NCBI GenBank assembly: GCA_025611195.1
Contig: GCA_025611195.1_4718.1
DNA length: 64,000 nucleotides
DNA from: a phage
Direction: 5' to 3' (one strand)
The position numbers were made by a program, and so were the translations under genes. Shown here piece after piece: positions 11,609 through 64,000 of the stretch. Each line of letters starts with the position of its first letter. Positions within the stretch are counted from its first letter, which is position 1. The notes under the pieces were generated by a model. The model made no database searches and was not told the DNA's origin. It was given only the letters and a program-made list of their open reading frames with translations.

Positions 11609-13405
11609 TCAATCGATTATGTCACGATCGTTAATTTCTACAATTTCTTCATCGAATCGACCGACGTCTTTCTTCAAGCCTGCATTTGTTGCTGCAACGT
11701 CATTTGCGATTTGTGGGGTAATGATTAACCGACCGCGTTCATCGATAGGTGCGTACATACTGAACTTCTGACGTCCGGTTGGTTCGGAGTGTGGAAGATT
11801 CAGATAGCTTGCGCAGAACGGGATGGAACCACTCACCAAACGACTCTCGTCAGCCAACGCAGCACCGCCTGCATTTTGGCTCTGGAGAACAACATGCGTG
11901 CTCACTTTGAACAGCATGCAATCGCCCGGTGACTGAATCGATGTTGCCACTTTCTCACGCTTATCACGATTGCTCTGGATATTGAGAATCGCTTCCGTTG
12001 CAACTTGATTGCGCAACGCCTTCTGTACATCGCGATTGGTCATCTCTTTACGGTTGTTCTGTCGTTTACCACGTTCCGTGGTTTTAAGATGGAACCCCAG
12101 TTTAAAGATGCTTTTACGCACATCCTCCATGACGTATTCCAACACCATCAATTCCTTACCGAACATCGTCGTGGTATCAACACGACTCATTTCGATAGTA
12201 ACGTTGTCAATCAGATACGCCATAAATTCGTAGAAGTCGTCGCAAGGAATATTTTCCTGTTTGAACTTCTTCTGTTGAATTTCATCAACGTAAAGATCGA
12301 GACTGTCGATGTGGTGGTTTACATCACGCAACAAACGCGCATCCGCATTGTTGTTATTAAAGATAATCAAACCGAGTAATGTACGCCAATGGTCTGGCGC
12401 ATTAGCGAACTCTTCAACCGGATAGTCTTCCGGGAAACGATCGTAATAACGGTCGATGAGATATAAGAACGCGCCGACAAGGCCAAGAACAATACGTTCC
12501 GTACCTCCACGTCTTACAGCGATTTGAATATCGGGATGTTTATAACGTACAGCGTTAGCGCTACGGCTTTTACCGCTTTTGCTGATACTAAAGCCTTTAG
12601 GAATAACCCCCATGGTGCGATAGATTACCCATTGGTCGCGCGGAAAATCGCGTTCAGCAAGATTCCGTCCGGTGACGGCTTCGACGCCAGCAAAACGTCG
12701 GAAACATTCACCCACCCCATACTTCGCAAAGAGATAGTGACCCAGTGTGGTTACGCTGGTGTGGTTGATGTTGTCACCGTTCACTTTACTTTGTTTGGTA
12801 AGATGATAGATTTGCGACCAGGGTAACGACAGGTAATGACGATAATCGATACCCGTTGGTGTATCATTGCTCAGGAACTGATACGGTGTACGTTTAACCG
12901 TGATTTTGTCACGCGGAAGCATGATGAACGCCATGTCTTTCGTGTAACTGATTACAGGGTCAGCGAGCACTGCACTGAGAATGAAGTTCGCACCACGTAG
13001 ACGCATTTTACCACCCTGACCTACCGCGGGCAATAGGAGAGGATGTCGGATAATGCAGTAGTCCTTTCCTGGTTCGCGGCGGTCACCTGATTCCATCGCA
13101 CCATACCAGCGGAATTCTAGCATCACCATAAACACGTCGGAAGGTGCAAGGTCGAAGGTCAGCTTACCGCTATCCTTCCCTTTGGTTTTCTTTCCTCCGC
13201 TTAAGTAGTGGAACTGTTCGCGGGCCATACAACGACGCAGGCCATGATACACCAGATCCTTAGGTAAACTATCTTTGCTGTTCCGCCAAAGACGATCAAC
13301 ATAGGACTCAACATCTTGCATCTTATCGACGACGATGTTGCGTGCTATCTTCTCGTTCATCTTCGGTGCAAGCTCAGCGACAGCTTTGCAGAATCTAGGA
13401 TCCAT
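11609..13405 (-). CDS. hypothetical protein (598 aa)
   Basis: AAAGGAG SD before ATG 13405; no P-loop or polymerase motif recognised. Confidence 0.8.
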   Translation of the reverse strand: MDPRFCKAVAELAPKMNEKIARNIVVDKMQDVESYVDRLWRNSKDSLPKDLVYHGLRRCMAREQFHYLSGGKKTKGKDSGKLTFDLAPSDVFMVMLEFRWYGAMESGDRREPGKDYCIIRHPLLLPAVGQGGKMRLRGANFILSAVLADPVISYTKDMAFIMLPRDKITVKRTPYQFLSNDTPTGIDYRHYLSLPWSQIYHLTKQSKVNGDNINHTSVTTLGHYLFAKYGVGECFRRFAGVEAVTGRNLAERDFPRDQWVIYRTMGVIPKGFSISKSGKSRSANAVRYKHPDIQIAVRRGGTERIVLGLVGAFLYLIDRYYDRFPEDYPVEEFANAPDHWRTLLGLIIFNNNNADARLLRDVNHHIDSLDLYVDEIQQKKFKQENIPCDDFYEFMAYLIDNVTIEMSRVDTTTMFGKELMVLEYVMEDVRKSIFKLGFHLKTTERGKRQNNRKEMTNRDVQKALRNQVATEAILNIQSNRDKREKVATSIQSPGDCMLFKVSTHVVLQSQNAGGAALADESRLVSGSIPFCASYLNLPHSEPTGRQKFSMYAPIDERGRLIITPQIANDVAATNAGLKKDVGRFDEEIVEINDRDIID

Positions 13406-57399: not shown

Positions 57400-58167
57400 T
57401 TACTTATTTTTGCTTTCTTTATAGACAGTTGTTACCCACGATGGGAAAGCCGGATGGAAACAGAGCGTGAACGTAACTGTCGTATCGTATTTAAACGCGC
57501 AGTTCACTAACCGGGTATCGAACGTTTTCCTTAGACCATCATCATCGTTATCGATGACAGCCATATCTCTTAATATCCCAAGCACGTTAACGCCGTCGAG
57601 TGTCTGGGTTACGACAAGTCGTCGTAATGGCCCGCATGTATAGTCACGTACAAATCCTTTCTTCGGGTCCGATACCCTGTTTAACGCATCGTGATTTTTG
57701 ATGAATTCATCGGCGATACAATAGGTTTGTTCCCTTGCTTTATCGGGATCGTATTCTGCTAATAGTTCCTTCGTGTCGAACGTTATCATGTTATTATCAT
57801 TCGATTCAGAAGGGAAACATAAAACTAAACGAACAGGGTATTCGTATTGATCTGTTCTTGTTTCGAAAGCATTAGCTAGACACGGCTTGTATGCCTTTGC
57901 GTCGACATTGTCCAAACATGGATGCAATAATGCATGAATAACGGCACCATCGTCAGTTAAACCGAATTCCAGAAATTGTACTTTATCAGTATCCGCTACG
58001 GTTTTCTGAAGATACGCTTTACCGTTTACGATATCGGTATCCCACATATCGTCGTTTAACGATTCTTCAAACTTATCGAATATATGGTTTACGAGATTGA
58101 CGAGTTCATCAATACGGCACTGTTGGTTGAATTCGATTAATCGCTGAACTTTATCTTTGATAGACAT
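57400..58167 (-). CDS. small paralog family member 6 (255 aa, apparently two-domain)
   Basis: YEYPVRLVLCFPS...EYDPD signature plus a second VTFTLCFHP strand. Confidence 0.7.
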   Translation of the reverse strand: MSIKDKVQRLIEFNQQCRIDELVNLVNHIFDKFEESLNDDMWDTDIVNGKAYLQKTVADTDKVQFLEFGLTDDGAVIHALLHPCLDNVDAKAYKPCLANAFETRTDQYEYPVRLVLCFPSESNDNNMITFDTKELLAEYDPDKAREQTYCIADEFIKNHDALNRVSDPKKGFVRDYTCGPLRRLVVTQTLDGVNVLGILRDMAVIDNDDDGLRKTFDTRLVNCAFKYDTTVTFTLCFHPAFPSWVTTVYKESKNK

Positions 58168-58169
58168 GA

Positions 58170-58628
58170 TTACCCCTTAGTTTCTTCTTCGTCTGGAGAG
58201 TACTCCATTGTGTAGAATTCATAACCATCGGAAAACTTGAGTGTTAATGTAATAGGGAAATCGCACGGCATAGCTGATTTCGTAAACGCGTTATTAGCAA
58301 CATCAGCCAACCGACGTATAGCATCAGTCCCGCTGACGCTGAACGGTAGTTGTATGTTGATAAGGATGCGGTGCTTGTAAACATGGAAAACAACGGTACT
58401 GTCAAGATAAACGCTATGGAACGGTATTGTTGGGATGCGTTCCACGATGGTAAAATACGTCCCGTCATTATCGCTATGTCCCATCGACCAAATATCGGAT
58501 TTGCGTAGATTTTGTTTGAGGGATTCGATACTTCGAGTGACGGTATCAACAACAGGCGTGACGTAAGTGTCTTTATGCGAGTCGAAAAGTTCGTTGACGT
58601 TAGATTCGAATGAATACATTGTTGCCAT
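58170..58628 (-). CDS. small paralog family member 7 (152 aa)
   Basis: QLPFSVSGTDAIRRLADVANNAF...CDFPITLTLKFSDGYEFYTMEYSPDEE; start ATG overlaps upstream stop (TAATG). Confidence 0.75.
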   Translation of the reverse strand: MATMYSFESNVNELFDSHKDTYVTPVVDTVTRSIESLKQNLRKSDIWSMGHSDNDGTYFTIVERIPTIPFHSVYLDSTVVFHVYKHRILINIQLPFSVSGTDAIRRLADVANNAFTKSAMPCDFPITLTLKFSDGYEFYTMEYSPDEEETKG

Positions 58629-59089
58629 TATTCTACCTCTTTCTTCATCTTCATCGGAACAGAGAGTGCTGTTATCTCTGTTCCATTATCCGGTTCATAC
58701 TCCAATGTAACGAGATTGCAGCCATCCGATAATTCATAATCGATCGCTAGGGGGAACGAGACACCGTGCGACTTTATGCATTTACCAAATGTCTCGTTGG
58801 CTGTATACATTAGAAGTTGCTTTGCGGCAAGCCCGTTTACGCTGAAAGGTAATCGTGCTGTCGCAGCGATACGATTATTGTAAACTCTGATATCGGTGAT
58901 ATCTACAATCGTAGCATTGCCGTGTTGTGTCGTTGGAACGGATAGGCTGTAGAAGTAAGGTTCGGAGTCGGAATCGGGCTCGTTAAATAATTCCCAGCAC
59001 CCGTCCTCCTGCAATCTTACTTCGAGTATTTCAAAGCTTTTAATTATCGATTCTACCAGCTGCTCACCGTAAGAATCCCATGTCGTCAT
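58628..59089 (-). CDS. small paralog family member 8 (about 153 aa)
   Basis: Track start GTG 59107; AAGGTG SD then ATG 59089. RLPFSVNGLAAKQLL...VSFPLAIDYELSDGCNLVTLEYEPDNG. Confidence 0.7.
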   Translation of the reverse strand: MTTWDSYGEQLVESIIKSFEILEVRLQEDGCWELFNEPDSDSEPYFYSLSVPTTQHGNATIVDITDIRVYNNRIAATARLPFSVNGLAAKQLLMYTANETFGKCIKSHGVSFPLAIDYELSDGCNLVTLEYEPDNGTEITALSVPMKMKKEVE

Positions 59090-59159
59090 TTTTAACACCT
59101 TCGACACCTTTTAACCGATGCGTGCCCCACCTAACAAGGGACACGATATCGTTGATTAA

Positions 59160-59654
59160 TTACTCTTCTGTGTTTTCATTGTCAGGATCGTAATGGAATT
59201 CGAACAGCCCTGAACCGTCATGTCCGTTGATTGTTAGTATAACGGGCATATCGAATCCTCGGACGCGCGAATGAAAACACTGTGCTAATTTTAGTTTGGC
59301 GTATGCCGCTATTTCATTGACGGCAATACACGACTCACCTGTTATACTCAGTATAACGTCGATACTAACAACGTTGTCGTGCAACGCAAAACGCCAGCGA
59401 TCGATACGATTATTATCTTTAGCAGCTGTCTCGTTTACGAGATAGACTTTATCGTCAACTGACAAAGCAGGGCTCCAGCAACGTTCGTTTATTAAATTCG
59501 CCTGGAGTTTTAGTATCGTCTGATCAATAATATCCCAACACGCAACCAGTGTGGTGTCGGGCACTGAACAGAGAAGGGCGAGCACTTTATCCTTTATTTT
59601 AAGTGCTTCCACAGAGCGTCCGCAAATACCATGCATTTCAACCTTCTTATTCAT
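59160..59654 (-). CDS. small paralog family member 9 (about 164 aa)
   Basis: Track start GTG 59660; AGAGGTG SD then ATG 59654. ...FDMPVILTINGHDGSGLFEFHYDPDNE. Confidence 0.7.
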   Translation of the reverse strand: MNKKVEMHGICGRSVEALKIKDKVLALLCSVPDTTLVACWDIIDQTILKLQANLINERCWSPALSVDDKVYLVNETAAKDNNRIDRWRFALHDNVVSIDVILSITGESCIAVNEIAAYAKLKLAQCFHSRVRGFDMPVILTINGHDGSGLFEFHYDPDNENTEE

Positions 59655-59697
59655 ATTCACCTCTTTCTTAATCTAAATGTTAGTTGGGGTGGGATGC

Positions 59698-60300
59698 TTA
59701 CATGCTTTCTAGCATATTGACGATCATGGAACCCATACCGAAACTCGGTCTCTCGCCAATGTACTCAGCAAGCTGACGATGAACGTCTTTTGGATTCCCT
59801 TCTTCACCGTCGGCGTCGATGTAAACCGAAAAAGAAAATGAATCGCAATCCACGCTGATAACCAGACGACGCTCATTGCGTTCCTTGAGTGTGTCGACAA
59901 TAGCTGCTTTCAGTACTGCGATCGCGTTCATCGCGTGCAAGATATCTCCATCGGGTTTCGGCAGATCGATCTTTTCTTTCAGGTCGATATTGATGTTGGT
60001 TACAATTGGATTGAGGTCGACCTTGACATAATCGTTAGGGTACATGCGAATAATCGCACGATCGATATCTGAACCGTAAAAGTCAACACGCGGCTTTAAC
60101 ACTTCTTTGTTTGGATCCATGTTTTCATCCATACCCGCCTGTAGAAAGCGTTCTACGTTATCCAGTTCACGATAGATTGACGCTTCGATTTCTTTCAGAT
60201 AGTTGGCTGCGGTTTCATGTTCTTTACGCAGCTCGTCTTTAAGGAGCTGTACGGTGGTTTCACTGGAACGAATGCTGTTTGCGAACTGGGTAATTGACAT
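59698..60300 (-). CDS. hypothetical small protein (200 aa)
   Basis: Track ORF extends to 60390 across terminator 60357-60377; AAGGAA SD then ATG 60300. Confidence 0.65.
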   Translation of the reverse strand: MSITQFANSIRSSETTVQLLKDELRKEHETAANYLKEIEASIYRELDNVERFLQAGMDENMDPNKEVLKPRVDFYGSDIDRAIIRMYPNDYVKVDLNPIVTNINIDLKEKIDLPKPDGDILHAMNAIAVLKAAIVDTLKERNERRLVISVDCDSFSFSVYIDADGEEGNPKDVHRQLAEYIGERPSFGMGSMIVNMLESM

Positions 60301-60349
60301 ATCGAATTCCTTAAATTCTCTTGAGTTCAATTGATGATGAAAAGCTGTT

Positions 60350-60377
60350 AAAAAAATGGTGGGGTTCTCCCCCACCA
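60350..60377 (-). terminator. canonical intrinsic terminator (minus strand): hairpin plus U7
   Basis: Minus-strand RNA would read GGUGGGG-gagaa-CCCCACC followed by UUUUUUU (plus 60350-60356). Confidence 0.65.
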
Positions 60378-60400
60378 AAACGTCAGACACACGCAGAAAA

Positions 60401-61614: not shown

Positions 61615-62253
61615 TTATGCAAAGCGACGCATGTAACCTGCCAGATAGTTACGCGTATCGAAGTAGGCGATTTCAGGAATTGCGATATTAAGGTCGATAG
61701 CGCGGATTTCAACTTGGCGACGGCTTTCATCATAGATCGCATCCATCAGACGCAGTACTGTCAGGAAAGCCATGCGGGTATGGTAGTCCAGCGGCATGTT
61801 ATCGATACCGCGATACAGATAACGGTTTGCGTTAAACGCCCCTTCACTGTTATCTTTCCAGATCTTCAGAATATCAGCAAAAGCGGCGCGGAAAACCTCA
61901 GGATTATCCACATCCAGTAACGCACGGAAGGCAGACATCAAAGATCGCTGATGACGGATCAAGGACTGCGGCGTTTGCGGCATGGTCGGACCCATTTCTT
62001 CCGCATATTTCTGGAACGGGGCGACCAGGGTTGCGGCACGAGAAGCAACGATAGAAACAGCAGGCGATTCTTTCACCGCTGGTTTCGCAGGCTTTTCTTC
62101 AACGGTGGTTTCCTTCTTCTCAACAGCAACCGTTTCCGGTTGTGCTACAACGTTGTTGGTCGGAGCAGCAGTCGCACCATTTTCCACGGCGGTCTCTACT
62201 GCTGTAATCTTTTCTTCCATTTGTGCGGAACGTTGGTCTTTATTCTTGCTCAT
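61615..62253 (-). CDS. hypothetical protein (212 aa) immediately downstream of the RNAP beta-prime fragment
   Basis: Ala/Glu/Val-rich N-terminus then a helical domain; no recognised motif. Confidence 0.7.
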   Translation of the reverse strand: MSKNKDQRSAQMEEKITAVETAVENGATAAPTNNVVAQPETVAVEKKETTVEEKPAKPAVKESPAVSIVASRAATLVAPFQKYAEEMGPTMPQTPQSLIRHQRSLMSAFRALLDVDNPEVFRAAFADILKIWKDNSEGAFNANRYLYRGIDNMPLDYHTRMAFLTVLRLMDAIYDESRRQVEIRAIDLNIAIPEIAYFDTRNYLAGYMRRFA

Positions 62254-62278: not shown

Positions 62279-63580
62279 TTAACTAATATAAAGTTCAGGA
62301 TCGTAAGGCGCTAATGATACACTGGCGTTATGCATTGCTTTCATCATAGTGTTCATGAAAACGTTGTTTACACCGGTGATCTCTGCCCCGATCGCGTCTG
62401 GGGTTGGAGCCATCGCGTTACCGCAACAGGTAGCACAGTATTCCAATGGACCTGCTTTACAGCGCTGAGGATCGCGTAACTTGATGGTTTGTCCTTCCAA
62501 GGAAGCGAGTAATTCAGCATCAATAAGTTTAAGCGCTGCGCCGTCGATCATGTAACGGCCGACAAGTAGCTTATCTTTGATGTGGTCGCGGTTTACCGTG
62601 AACAGAATATGTTCTTGGGTGCCGCAGTCGTCCATCGTGATTTTAAGGTTCTGTGTTGCGCGTTGTGATTCTTTAGCCGTTTGTCCAGCTAAAGCGGTCA
62701 ACGCACCACGTGAGAACGAACCAGCACGTGCACTGTTGTTGTACTCCGCCCAATGGTCGACACGCATCCCTTCAGCCAGGCTGTGTGTGATAACGTTACG
62801 TTTACCAGGGTCAACGAAGTCAGCCTCAACCCCCATCATGATGTGCGTTTTCTTTCGAGTATTACCGAAACTCTTGCCAGGGTTAATATAGAACCCTTCC
62901 GATTCATCGCCCTTAAAGGATTCCTTATCCATTTTGGTTAGCGTGGCTTCGAGTTTGATCAGTTCTTCAGGCGTGAACTTACCTTCCTCTTGCAAACGCG
63001 CTAACTCTTTATCACGATAGGCAATAATATCATCGTCGACCGTTAACGCTTTATCGCTCATCGATGGCACAATCAAACGGTTGATAGCGGTTAATGCGCT
63101 GATATTGTTGGTGAATTTCTTCACTTCGCTTGCGTATAGCGGGCCAATCGGACGTTCGTTAGGATCGGGTATTCCCTCTTCAGGGTCGTCTGCTACGCGT
63201 GGCGCAATCAGTGATTCTAGTGTACCGCTGGTCAACCGTCCTGCCTGATATTCAATCTGAATACCGAAAGCATCATAAAGGACGTACATATTGAACAACG
63301 CTTCACCGAAGGTTGTGGCGGTTGTGTTCTTAACCGACGGTAGATCACCAGGTGCAAGCTCCAACGGCTCCCAGAAATTCAACAAGGGTTTTGTTGGTTC
63401 TGTTTCCCATTGGTGTTCTTCACCGTCGATGGTAACCGTAACGATGTTACCTTGACGACGTAATTTAGGCTGATACTTCTCAGCACCGCCTTCCGTAAAA
63501 GCAAATGCGTCGTTAATCCATTCAAGATAACGGTAGTGCCCTTCACGCAACGCGTAAAGGAAATAATCACGAGGTGTCAT
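62279..63580 (-). CDS. multisubunit RNA polymerase beta-prime homolog, C-terminal fragment (bridge helix to trigger loop)
   Basis: AAAAGGAG SD before ATG 63580. GALTALAGQTAKES...MDDCGTQEHILF resembles the bacterial bridge helix plus DDCGT; CATCCGN...AIGAEITGVNNVFMNTMMKAMH resembles the trigger-loop region. No NADFDGD motif, so the catalytic N-terminal half is encoded elsewhere. Confidence 0.7.
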   Translation of the reverse strand: MTPRDYFLYALREGHYRYLEWINDAFAFTEGGAEKYQPKLRRQGNIVTVTIDGEEHQWETEPTKPLLNFWEPLELAPGDLPSVKNTTATTFGEALFNMYVLYDAFGIQIEYQAGRLTSGTLESLIAPRVADDPEEGIPDPNERPIGPLYASEVKKFTNNISALTAINRLIVPSMSDKALTVDDDIIAYRDKELARLQEEGKFTPEELIKLEATLTKMDKESFKGDESEGFYINPGKSFGNTRKKTHIMMGVEADFVDPGKRNVITHSLAEGMRVDHWAEYNNSARAGSFSRGALTALAGQTAKESQRATQNLKITMDDCGTQEHILFTVNRDHIKDKLLVGRYMIDGAALKLIDAELLASLEGQTIKLRDPQRCKAGPLEYCATCCGNAMAPTPDAIGAEITGVNNVFMNTMMKAMHNASVSLAPYDPELYIS

Positions 63581-63593
63581 GTAACAACTCCTT

Positions 63594-64000
63594 TTAAACG
63601 TGGGTCAGGTCACCGTGACGTGAAACGAACTCTGATAACGCTCGGGTTGCTTCTTTGGATTCTTCAACCATCGGGAAGTTTGTGGTAACAAGTTCTCGTA
63701 GGACAGGAATGATTTCATTATCTTCGAGATCGGAAGCTAACGCGAATGCGATCAGTTCTTGGGCGTACGCATACGGCTGCTGACGTAATGCGGCAAGCTG
63801 ATTCCGACACTGCGACATTAGCAGGTCCAGTGGAACCGCTATTGTACCCCCTTCATCAATATACTGACCGAATACCGGTGGGAACGCATCGCTGATTACA
63901 CGAATTCGTCGACGGATGCGATCAGGAATCTGGACGTTTTCTTCGTCGGCGATATTTTCGCTGTCTTTCTCCAGCTTCTTGGTTAACACCTGCTGGATAC
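63594..64000 (-). CDS. hypothetical protein, C-terminal part only (N-terminus beyond window end)
   Basis: Frame stays open upstream of the track start (GTG 63989) to the window edge. Confidence 0.5.
   Translation of the reverse strand, partial: IQQVLTKKLEKDSENIADEENVQIPDRIRRRIRVISDAFPPVFGQYIDEGGTIAVPLDLLMSQCRNQLAALRQQPYAYAQELIAFALASDLEDNEIIPVLRELVTTNFPMVEESKEATRALSEFVSRHGDLTHV

Follow-up and report, generated by a model that had tools for sequence, protein, structure and literature searches.

The minus strand of the analyzed phage DNA, a stretch of 64,000 nucleotides to which we refer as the window, contains near its end an ATG-initiated open reading frame (ORF) of 433 amino acids plus stop (positions 62279–63580 in the ORF listing of the window). 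A first-pass annotation had read the product as a phage-encoded β′ fragment of a phiKZ-type split RNA polymerase (RNAP), placed this fragment at the C-terminus of β′, and did not assign it to either the virion enzyme (vRNAP) or the non-virion enzyme (nvRNAP). The questions raised by this locus are which part of β′ is encoded here, to which of the two polymerases it belongs, and whether the adjacent genes contribute further pieces. The gene and its ribosome-binding site are located as follows:

62279–63580, minus strand: β′M gene, encoding the middle part of β′ of the virion RNA polymerase; based on the ORF, PHROG 2962, identity to the Goslar and phiKZ proteins, and β′ profile and fold similarity.
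63588–63593, minus strand: Shine-Dalgarno sequence AAGGAG, 7 nt 5′ of the β′M ATG; read directly from the sequence.

The Shine-Dalgarno sequence was graded strong. The stop codon of the upstream gene occupies positions 63594–63596, and the β′M ATG lies 13 nt past that stop. A scan for sigma-70 promoters around the gene gave a background-level result (13 found versus 14.2 expected), in line with expectation for a phage that works without the host RNAP.

The region matched Escherichia phage vB_EcoM_Goslar with 95.4% nucleotide identity (megablast), and the product of the ORF was 98.8% identical at the amino acid level (tblastn) to Goslar gp078, which is annotated in RefSeq as “RNA polymerase beta subunit”. 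A codon-wise comparison of the two genes revealed 48 synonymous and five non-synonymous differences, a ratio that indicates strong purifying selection on the ORF. The five substitutions are conservative, all fall within residues 5–88, and none affects a functional motif. Among more distant relatives, tblastn detected homologs in 311 jumbo-phage records, including SPN3US-like phages and AR9, and a match to phiKZ gp80 (32% identity, E = 5e-42, 97% of the query), which is annotated as a structural head protein. PHROG 2962 (RNA polymerase beta subunit) matched the ORF from end to end (residues 1–432 of 433, E = 7e-106). Two word-indexed homolog searches gave 8–10 proteins each; the family census was taken from an exhaustive search of representatives, which yielded 2088 clusters (50% identity) at E ≤ 1e-3 and 901 clusters at E ≤ 1e-30. 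Nearly all proteins in the best 150 of these 901 clusters were 420–465 aa long and ended where this ORF ends, and the chain continued for exactly 16 residues after the trigger-loop histidine in 94 of the 100 homologs that matched the motif. Four homologs (P0015, P0024, P0036, and P0072) carry an extra N-terminal domain of ~145 aa (‘..YHGS...G..AVFAT..’) before the normal start.

The ORF is the ortholog of Goslar gp078, phiKZ gp80, SPN3US gp42, and AR9 g264, and it belongs to the virion polymerase. We are highly confident that it encodes β′M, one of the five vRNAP polypeptides (β′N, β′M, β′C, βN, and βC) of a Goslar-like jumbo phage of the Chimalliviridae. In phiKZ, the vRNAP consists of gp178, gp149, gp180, and gp80 (PMC8287921), and these four proteins co-immunoprecipitate (PMC10612078). 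The 431-aa protein gp42 of SPN3US has been named “β′M”, and the β′ C-terminus of this phage is a separate virion protein of 240 aa, gp244, a homolog of phiKZ gp176 (PMC5105663). A review from 2020 accordingly drew the vRNAP core as N-β′, Mid-β′, C-β′, N-β, and C-β (PMC7598289). If one vRNAP subunit of SPN3US is missing, none of the five enters the head, and the enzyme is a head ejection protein (PMC5694885). Goslar gp78 has been listed among the five vRNAP subunits by virion mass spectrometry, with about 14–33 copies. The role of β′M is already known, as it is annotated in RefSeq for a phage with 95% identity and has been named as a vRNAP subunit in print; its function in the phage studied here would be carried over by analogy from the 98.8% identical ortholog and from the more distant ones. 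The gene can also serve as a marker, which identifies the window as DNA of a nucleus-forming jumbo phage of the Chimalliviridae that carries its own polymerase into the cell and is independent of host transcription.

Both genes that flank β′M had been named by the first-pass annotation as candidates for further RNAP pieces:

61615–62253, minus strand: capsid decorator gene, 212 aa, ortholog of Goslar gp77; based on 98% identity to Goslar gp077.
63594–64000, minus strand: 3′ part (last ~135 codons) of the upstream gene, encoding a virion protein of the gp79 family; based on PHROG 5038 and phiKZ gp79 homology.

The 212-aa gene starts 25 nt downstream of the β′M ORF and has its own Shine-Dalgarno sequence. 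Its Goslar ortholog has been built into the cryo-EM map of the capsid as a decorator of the outer surface, with about 430 copies in each virion. The upstream gene is cut off by the end of the window, and the GTG listed as its start is an internal valine codon. Its full-length ortholog, Goslar gp079 (290 aa), matches PHROG 5038 (function unknown) and shows a weak but full-length alignment to the 285-aa structural head protein gp79 of phiKZ. With 24 synonymous versus 12 non-synonymous changes, this gene evolves faster than β′M; tblastn of gp079 matched Goslar only, and relatives were found by profile. In five jumbo phages with Gram-negative hosts (Goslar, phiKZ, the SPN3US-like phage SaP7, Erwinia phage pEa_SNUABM_54, and Vibrio phage Yong MS31), a gp79-like ORF (~275–290 aa) directly precedes β′M and either abuts or overlaps it. 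The profile of the Goslar-type gp79 selected exactly these neighboring ORFs (E = 6e-9 to 2e-3; next match 0.19), and no such gene was present beside the β′M orthologs of AR9 and MarsHill. The gp79-like ORFs are located at:

L001:11393–12265, Goslar gp079.
L003:3157–4014, phiKZ gp79.
L008:2157–3014, gp79-like ORF.
L009:2140–2997, gp79-like ORF.
L010:2166–2993, gp79-like ORF.

That these two genes encode additional parts of the split polymerase would agree with their shared orientation and tight packing with β′M, with the conservation of the upstream gene as the β′M neighbor in the five phages, and with the presence of Goslar gp079 in virions, where mass spectrometry detected about 10–24 copies, close to the numbers of the vRNAP subunits. 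Against this reading stand the position of the 212-aa protein on the outside of the capsid, the absence of PDB matches for the gp79-family profile and its probability of 0.2% in the hhalign comparison with β′, the lack of the upstream gene in AR9 and MarsHill at this position, and the fact that the five vRNAP subunits leave no part of β or β′ unassigned. We thus regard it as very improbable that either flank encodes an RNAP piece. A different and tentative idea, to which we assign a small chance, is that the gp79-like protein is a dedicated accessory of the vRNAP, such as an adaptor for assembly or packaging or a specificity factor for early promoters like the fifth nvRNAP subunit (phiKZ gp68, AR9 gp226). 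In the literature searched, neither a published function for the gp79-like protein nor a factor of the fifth-subunit type for the virion enzyme was found. The conserved neighbor of β′M is a small lead toward the poorly characterized virion polymerase.

Three other observations were made on the minus strand of the window. Small paralogous genes are arranged in tandem at positions 57400–59660, namely 58170–58628, 58628–59107, 59160–59660, and the N-terminal half of 57400–58167; each paralog spans 150–166 aa and shares the C-terminal pattern ‘..SDG..l...EY.PD..’, and those scanned matched no Pfam or PHROG family. The array sits where Goslar has a run of small hypothetical genes (gp070–073). At 60357–60377, a terminator-like hairpin (TGGTGGGG-GAGAA-CCCCACCA followed by T7), graded strong, lies in the 5′ end of a 230-aa ORF with a GTG start (59698–60390). 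The real start of this ORF is probably the ATG 30 codons further in, which would give a protein of 200 aa, as long as Goslar gp074; a terminator is annotated at the corresponding position in Goslar. Finally, a 598-aa ORF at 11609–13405 matched PHROG 2943 (‘polymerase’) with E = 7e-120, had no Pfam match, and corresponds to Goslar gp039.

The relationship of the β′M protein to bacterial β′ became significant only with family profiles and fold comparison, as the single-sequence search was marginal and Pfam empty. A Pfam search of the ORF and four neighbors returned nothing useful, the RpoC models did not match, and a single-sequence phmmer search against the PDB gave marginal β′ matches (E about 0.03). 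A profile of nine sequences matched Francisella β′ (residues 752–903) with E = 3.7e-7. A profile of 141 sequences (hmmsearch against the PDB) matched bacterial β′ with E = 1.4e-9 and extended the coverage back to profile position 94; the matches that begin at positions 94–95 align with residue 659 of Streptomyces β′ and residue 665 of M. tuberculosis β′. The same profile matched the nvRNAP proteins AR9 gp270 (PDB 7s00_D, E = 4e-9) and phiKZ gp74 (7ogp_D, E = 8e-7). In the hhalign comparison with E. coli β′, residues 245–417 aligned with β′ 740–936 (E = 5.9e-7), and the alignment terminated exactly at the trigger-loop residue H936. An AlphaFold model built with the 141-sequence alignment had a pLDDT of 94.7 and a pTM of 0.84; an earlier run with nine sequences (pLDDT 64, bridge and trigger helices below 50) was discarded. 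In the Foldseek search against the PDB with this model, the top matches were all β′ chains or AR9 gp270 (probability 1.00, E down to 1e-10), and the alignments to β′ covered about 390–470 columns at a sequence identity of ~15–18%. The resemblance of the ORF to β′ is far beyond chance. PHROG 2962, the profile, hhalign, and the fold all bear out the initial reading of a β′ fragment from a phiKZ-type split RNAP, and the similarity of the DDCGT region to RpoC, which had been singled out as the test of that reading, was significant by profile, hhalign, and Foldseek.

These comparisons also bear on whether the ORF could instead encode the C-terminal β′ subunit of the nvRNAP (phiKZ gp74/AR9 gp270 type), the enzyme that transcribes middle and late genes in the phage nucleus. 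Homology to this group is evident from the matches to 7s00_D and 7ogp_D, from a partial match to the nvRNAP-type phrog_3015 (E = 7e-11), and from the occurrence of AR9 gp270 among the top fold matches. However, the match to the gp80/gp42 family spans the full length and is about 95 orders of magnitude stronger, the best match in phiKZ is gp80 and not gp74, and the nvRNAP proteins (631–677 aa) run about 240–280 residues past the end of this chain. Moreover, the Goslar ortholog is found in virions and is labeled as vRNAP. An nvRNAP subunit is therefore an extremely improbable reading of the ORF, and we retain its identification as β′M of the virion enzyme.

The alignments and the model resolve the β′M chain into the following parts:

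62846–63580, minus strand: N-terminal region, residues 1–245; based on PDB profile matches and the Foldseek span.
62654–62761, minus strand: bridge helix, residues 274–309, containing GALTALAGQTAKES; based on the model helix, the E. coli alignment, and invariant columns.
62417–62632, minus strand: β′ zinc-binding module, residues 317–388, with DDCGT (C319), RCKAG (C374), and YCATCCGN (C382, C385).
62330–62392, minus strand: first trigger helix, residues 397–417; based on hhalign, the model helix, and the invariant H417.
62279–62329, minus strand: 16-residue C-terminal tail NASVSLAPYDPELYIS plus stop; length kept across homologs.

Residues 1–245 probably represent the part of β′ lying after the catalytic double-psi barrel and before the bridge helix; in the terms of textbook β′ topology, we take this part to be the funnel or secondary-channel side. 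The bridge helix, the DDCGT motif, the cysteine segment, and the first trigger helix had been noticed from the sequence, and all were recovered in the motif positions (GALTALAGQTAKES at residue 292, DDCGT at 317, CATCCGN at 382, and AIGAEITGVNNVFMNTMMKAMH at 396–417), the model, and the alignment. The bridge helix aligned with E. coli β′ around residues 770–805. C319, C374, C382, and C385 aligned with C814, C888, C895, and C898 of E. coli β′, which form the second β′ zinc module, and H417 (MMKAMH) with LTMRTFH936. Ten residues were invariant in the 141 homologs, namely the four cysteines, H417, R291, T295, and G299 of the bridge helix, W21, and G250. The same cysteine zinc module has been described in phiKZ gp74 (PMC8287921). 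The second trigger helix has no counterpart in the chain, which ends inside the trigger loop, 16 residues after His417 and not about 30 aa after the loop as first estimated. The product is also not a C-terminal fragment. It is the middle piece of β′, and the C-terminus is the separate virion protein of ~240 aa represented by SPN3US gp244, phiKZ gp176, and, judging from size and gene order, Goslar gp210. This anatomy, with an end inside the trigger loop, is needed for the correct annotation of such phages. That the ORF is a non-functional remnant of a full-length β′ gene, left by decay or truncation, has a negligible probability, and the data contradict it: the ORF indeed lacks the catalytic loop and the C-terminal third of β′, stops inside the trigger loop, and is missed by the Pfam RpoC models, but its length and end point recur across the best 150 of the 901 clusters, its functional residues are invariant, the 48:5 substitution ratio and the strong Shine-Dalgarno sequence speak for an intact gene, its ortholog is a detected virion protein, and the SPN3US counterpart is part of an essential complex.

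The catalytic loop of β′ was sought separately. As the first-pass annotation had stated, NADFDGD is absent from the product; a search of the 433-aa protein and of the six-frame translation of the 64-kb window found neither this motif nor DFDGD. The same annotation had expected a partner with this motif elsewhere in the genome. None is encoded in the window, and genes for β′N, β′C, βN, and βC were likewise not found within these 64 kb. In Goslar, whose genome carries gp205, gp210, gp207, and gp196 as partner subunits, the partner exists as gp205 (β′N, PHROG 2986; L005:757–2265, minus strand), with a loop that appears to be divided by an intron. Alignments of homologs to gp205 end at residue 489 of its 502 residues, and the annotated ORF ends in ...APYLAGLGGDQGKANK directly before its stop. 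It is followed by an HNH gene, gp206, and by an annotated group I intron. Just upstream of gp207, an unannotated frame of 66 codons reads ..FDGDTVSVNVLYSMEAIDE.., and its product matches the C-terminus of the uninterrupted protein of Erwinia phage RAY (gp163; E = 4e-9), which reads LGLLGGDYDGDTMSATILLGDDVLRE. The putative splice junction in Goslar is GGT GAT / intron ... AAG G / TTC GAC. A U and a G are expected at group I splice sites, and both are present at this junction. Judging from these sequences, the RefSeq CDS of gp205 appears to consist of exon 1 plus a read-through extension into the group I intron, with the loop split between GGD and FDGD, and the remainder of β′N would be encoded by the following frame:

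L004:46575–46775, minus strand: putative second exon of Goslar β′N, about 59 codons, FDGDTVSVNV...; unannotated frame between the intron and gp207.

An exact DFDGD was not found in Goslar gp205, gp207, or gp247, in the case of gp205 because the intron would split the loop. Goslar gp247, a second RNAP gene whose annotation points to a β′-like subunit and which may encode the non-virion β′N, shows a similar arrangement: an annotated group I intron and an HNH gene (gp186) come after it (L004:3236–5911 for all three elements), which suggests that it is intron-interrupted as well. When Goslar gp207, gp196, and gp210 were searched against the PDB as single sequences, no RNAP similarity was seen; the support for their putative assignments to β and β′ comes from PHROGs, size, gene order, and the literature, and by size, gene order, and the literature gp210 is the likely β′C.

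From these data the following working model can be proposed for the virion polymerase. In this model, β′M contributes the part of β′ that follows the catalytic barrel, together with the bridge helix, the second zinc module, and the first trigger helix, which carries the catalytic histidine; β′N would bring the Mg-binding (D)FDGD loop, and β′C the rest of β′, presumably with the second trigger helix. The genes for β′N and β′C lie far outside the window. As in the orthologous systems, the five subunits would form a multisubunit polymerase without α and ω. The solved structures searched included no vRNAP, and we infer how exactly β′M contacts its partners and what becomes of the divided trigger loop in the complex. 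If the system works as in phiKZ, SPN3US, and Goslar, the subunits would be made during infection and assembled into the complex before it enters the prohead, roughly 10–30 copies would be packaged per head and ejected together with the DNA, and transcription of the early genes by this enzyme would then not require the host polymerase.

Compared with known systems, the protein is closest to the vRNAP β′M family (Goslar gp078, phiKZ gp80, SPN3US gp42, and AR9 g264), with which it shares full-length homology, a size of ~430 aa, the invariant four cysteines, histidine, and bridge-helix residues, the end 16 aa past the trigger-loop histidine and, in phages of Gram-negative hosts, the gp79-like upstream neighbor. 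From Goslar gp078 it differs by the five conservative substitutions, with no functional difference. The bridge helix, the four-cysteine module, the first trigger helix, and the fold are also shared with the C-terminal β′ subunit of the nvRNAP (phiKZ gp74, PDB 7OGP chain D; AR9 gp270, 7S00 chain D). However, phiKZ gp74 (677 aa) and AR9 gp270 (631 aa) each form one polypeptide with the rest of β′, whereas β′M stops after the first trigger helix; the alignments end at residue 395 of 677 in 7ogp_D and at residue 369 of 631 in 7s00_D. In addition, virions contain the vRNAP, to which β′M belongs, but not the nvRNAP. Homology to bacterial β′ (RpoC) extends at least from residue 740 to 936 of the E. 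coli protein, and further upstream according to the PDB profile matches. The division of β′ into rpoC1 and rpoC2 in cyanobacteria falls at the same place, after the catalytic barrel, as the phage split between β′N and β′M. In contrast to the bacterial and cyanobacterial enzymes, the phage polymerase has no α or ω partners and its β′ is split a second time inside the trigger loop, at a point that we take to be the site of the SI3 insertion in E. coli.
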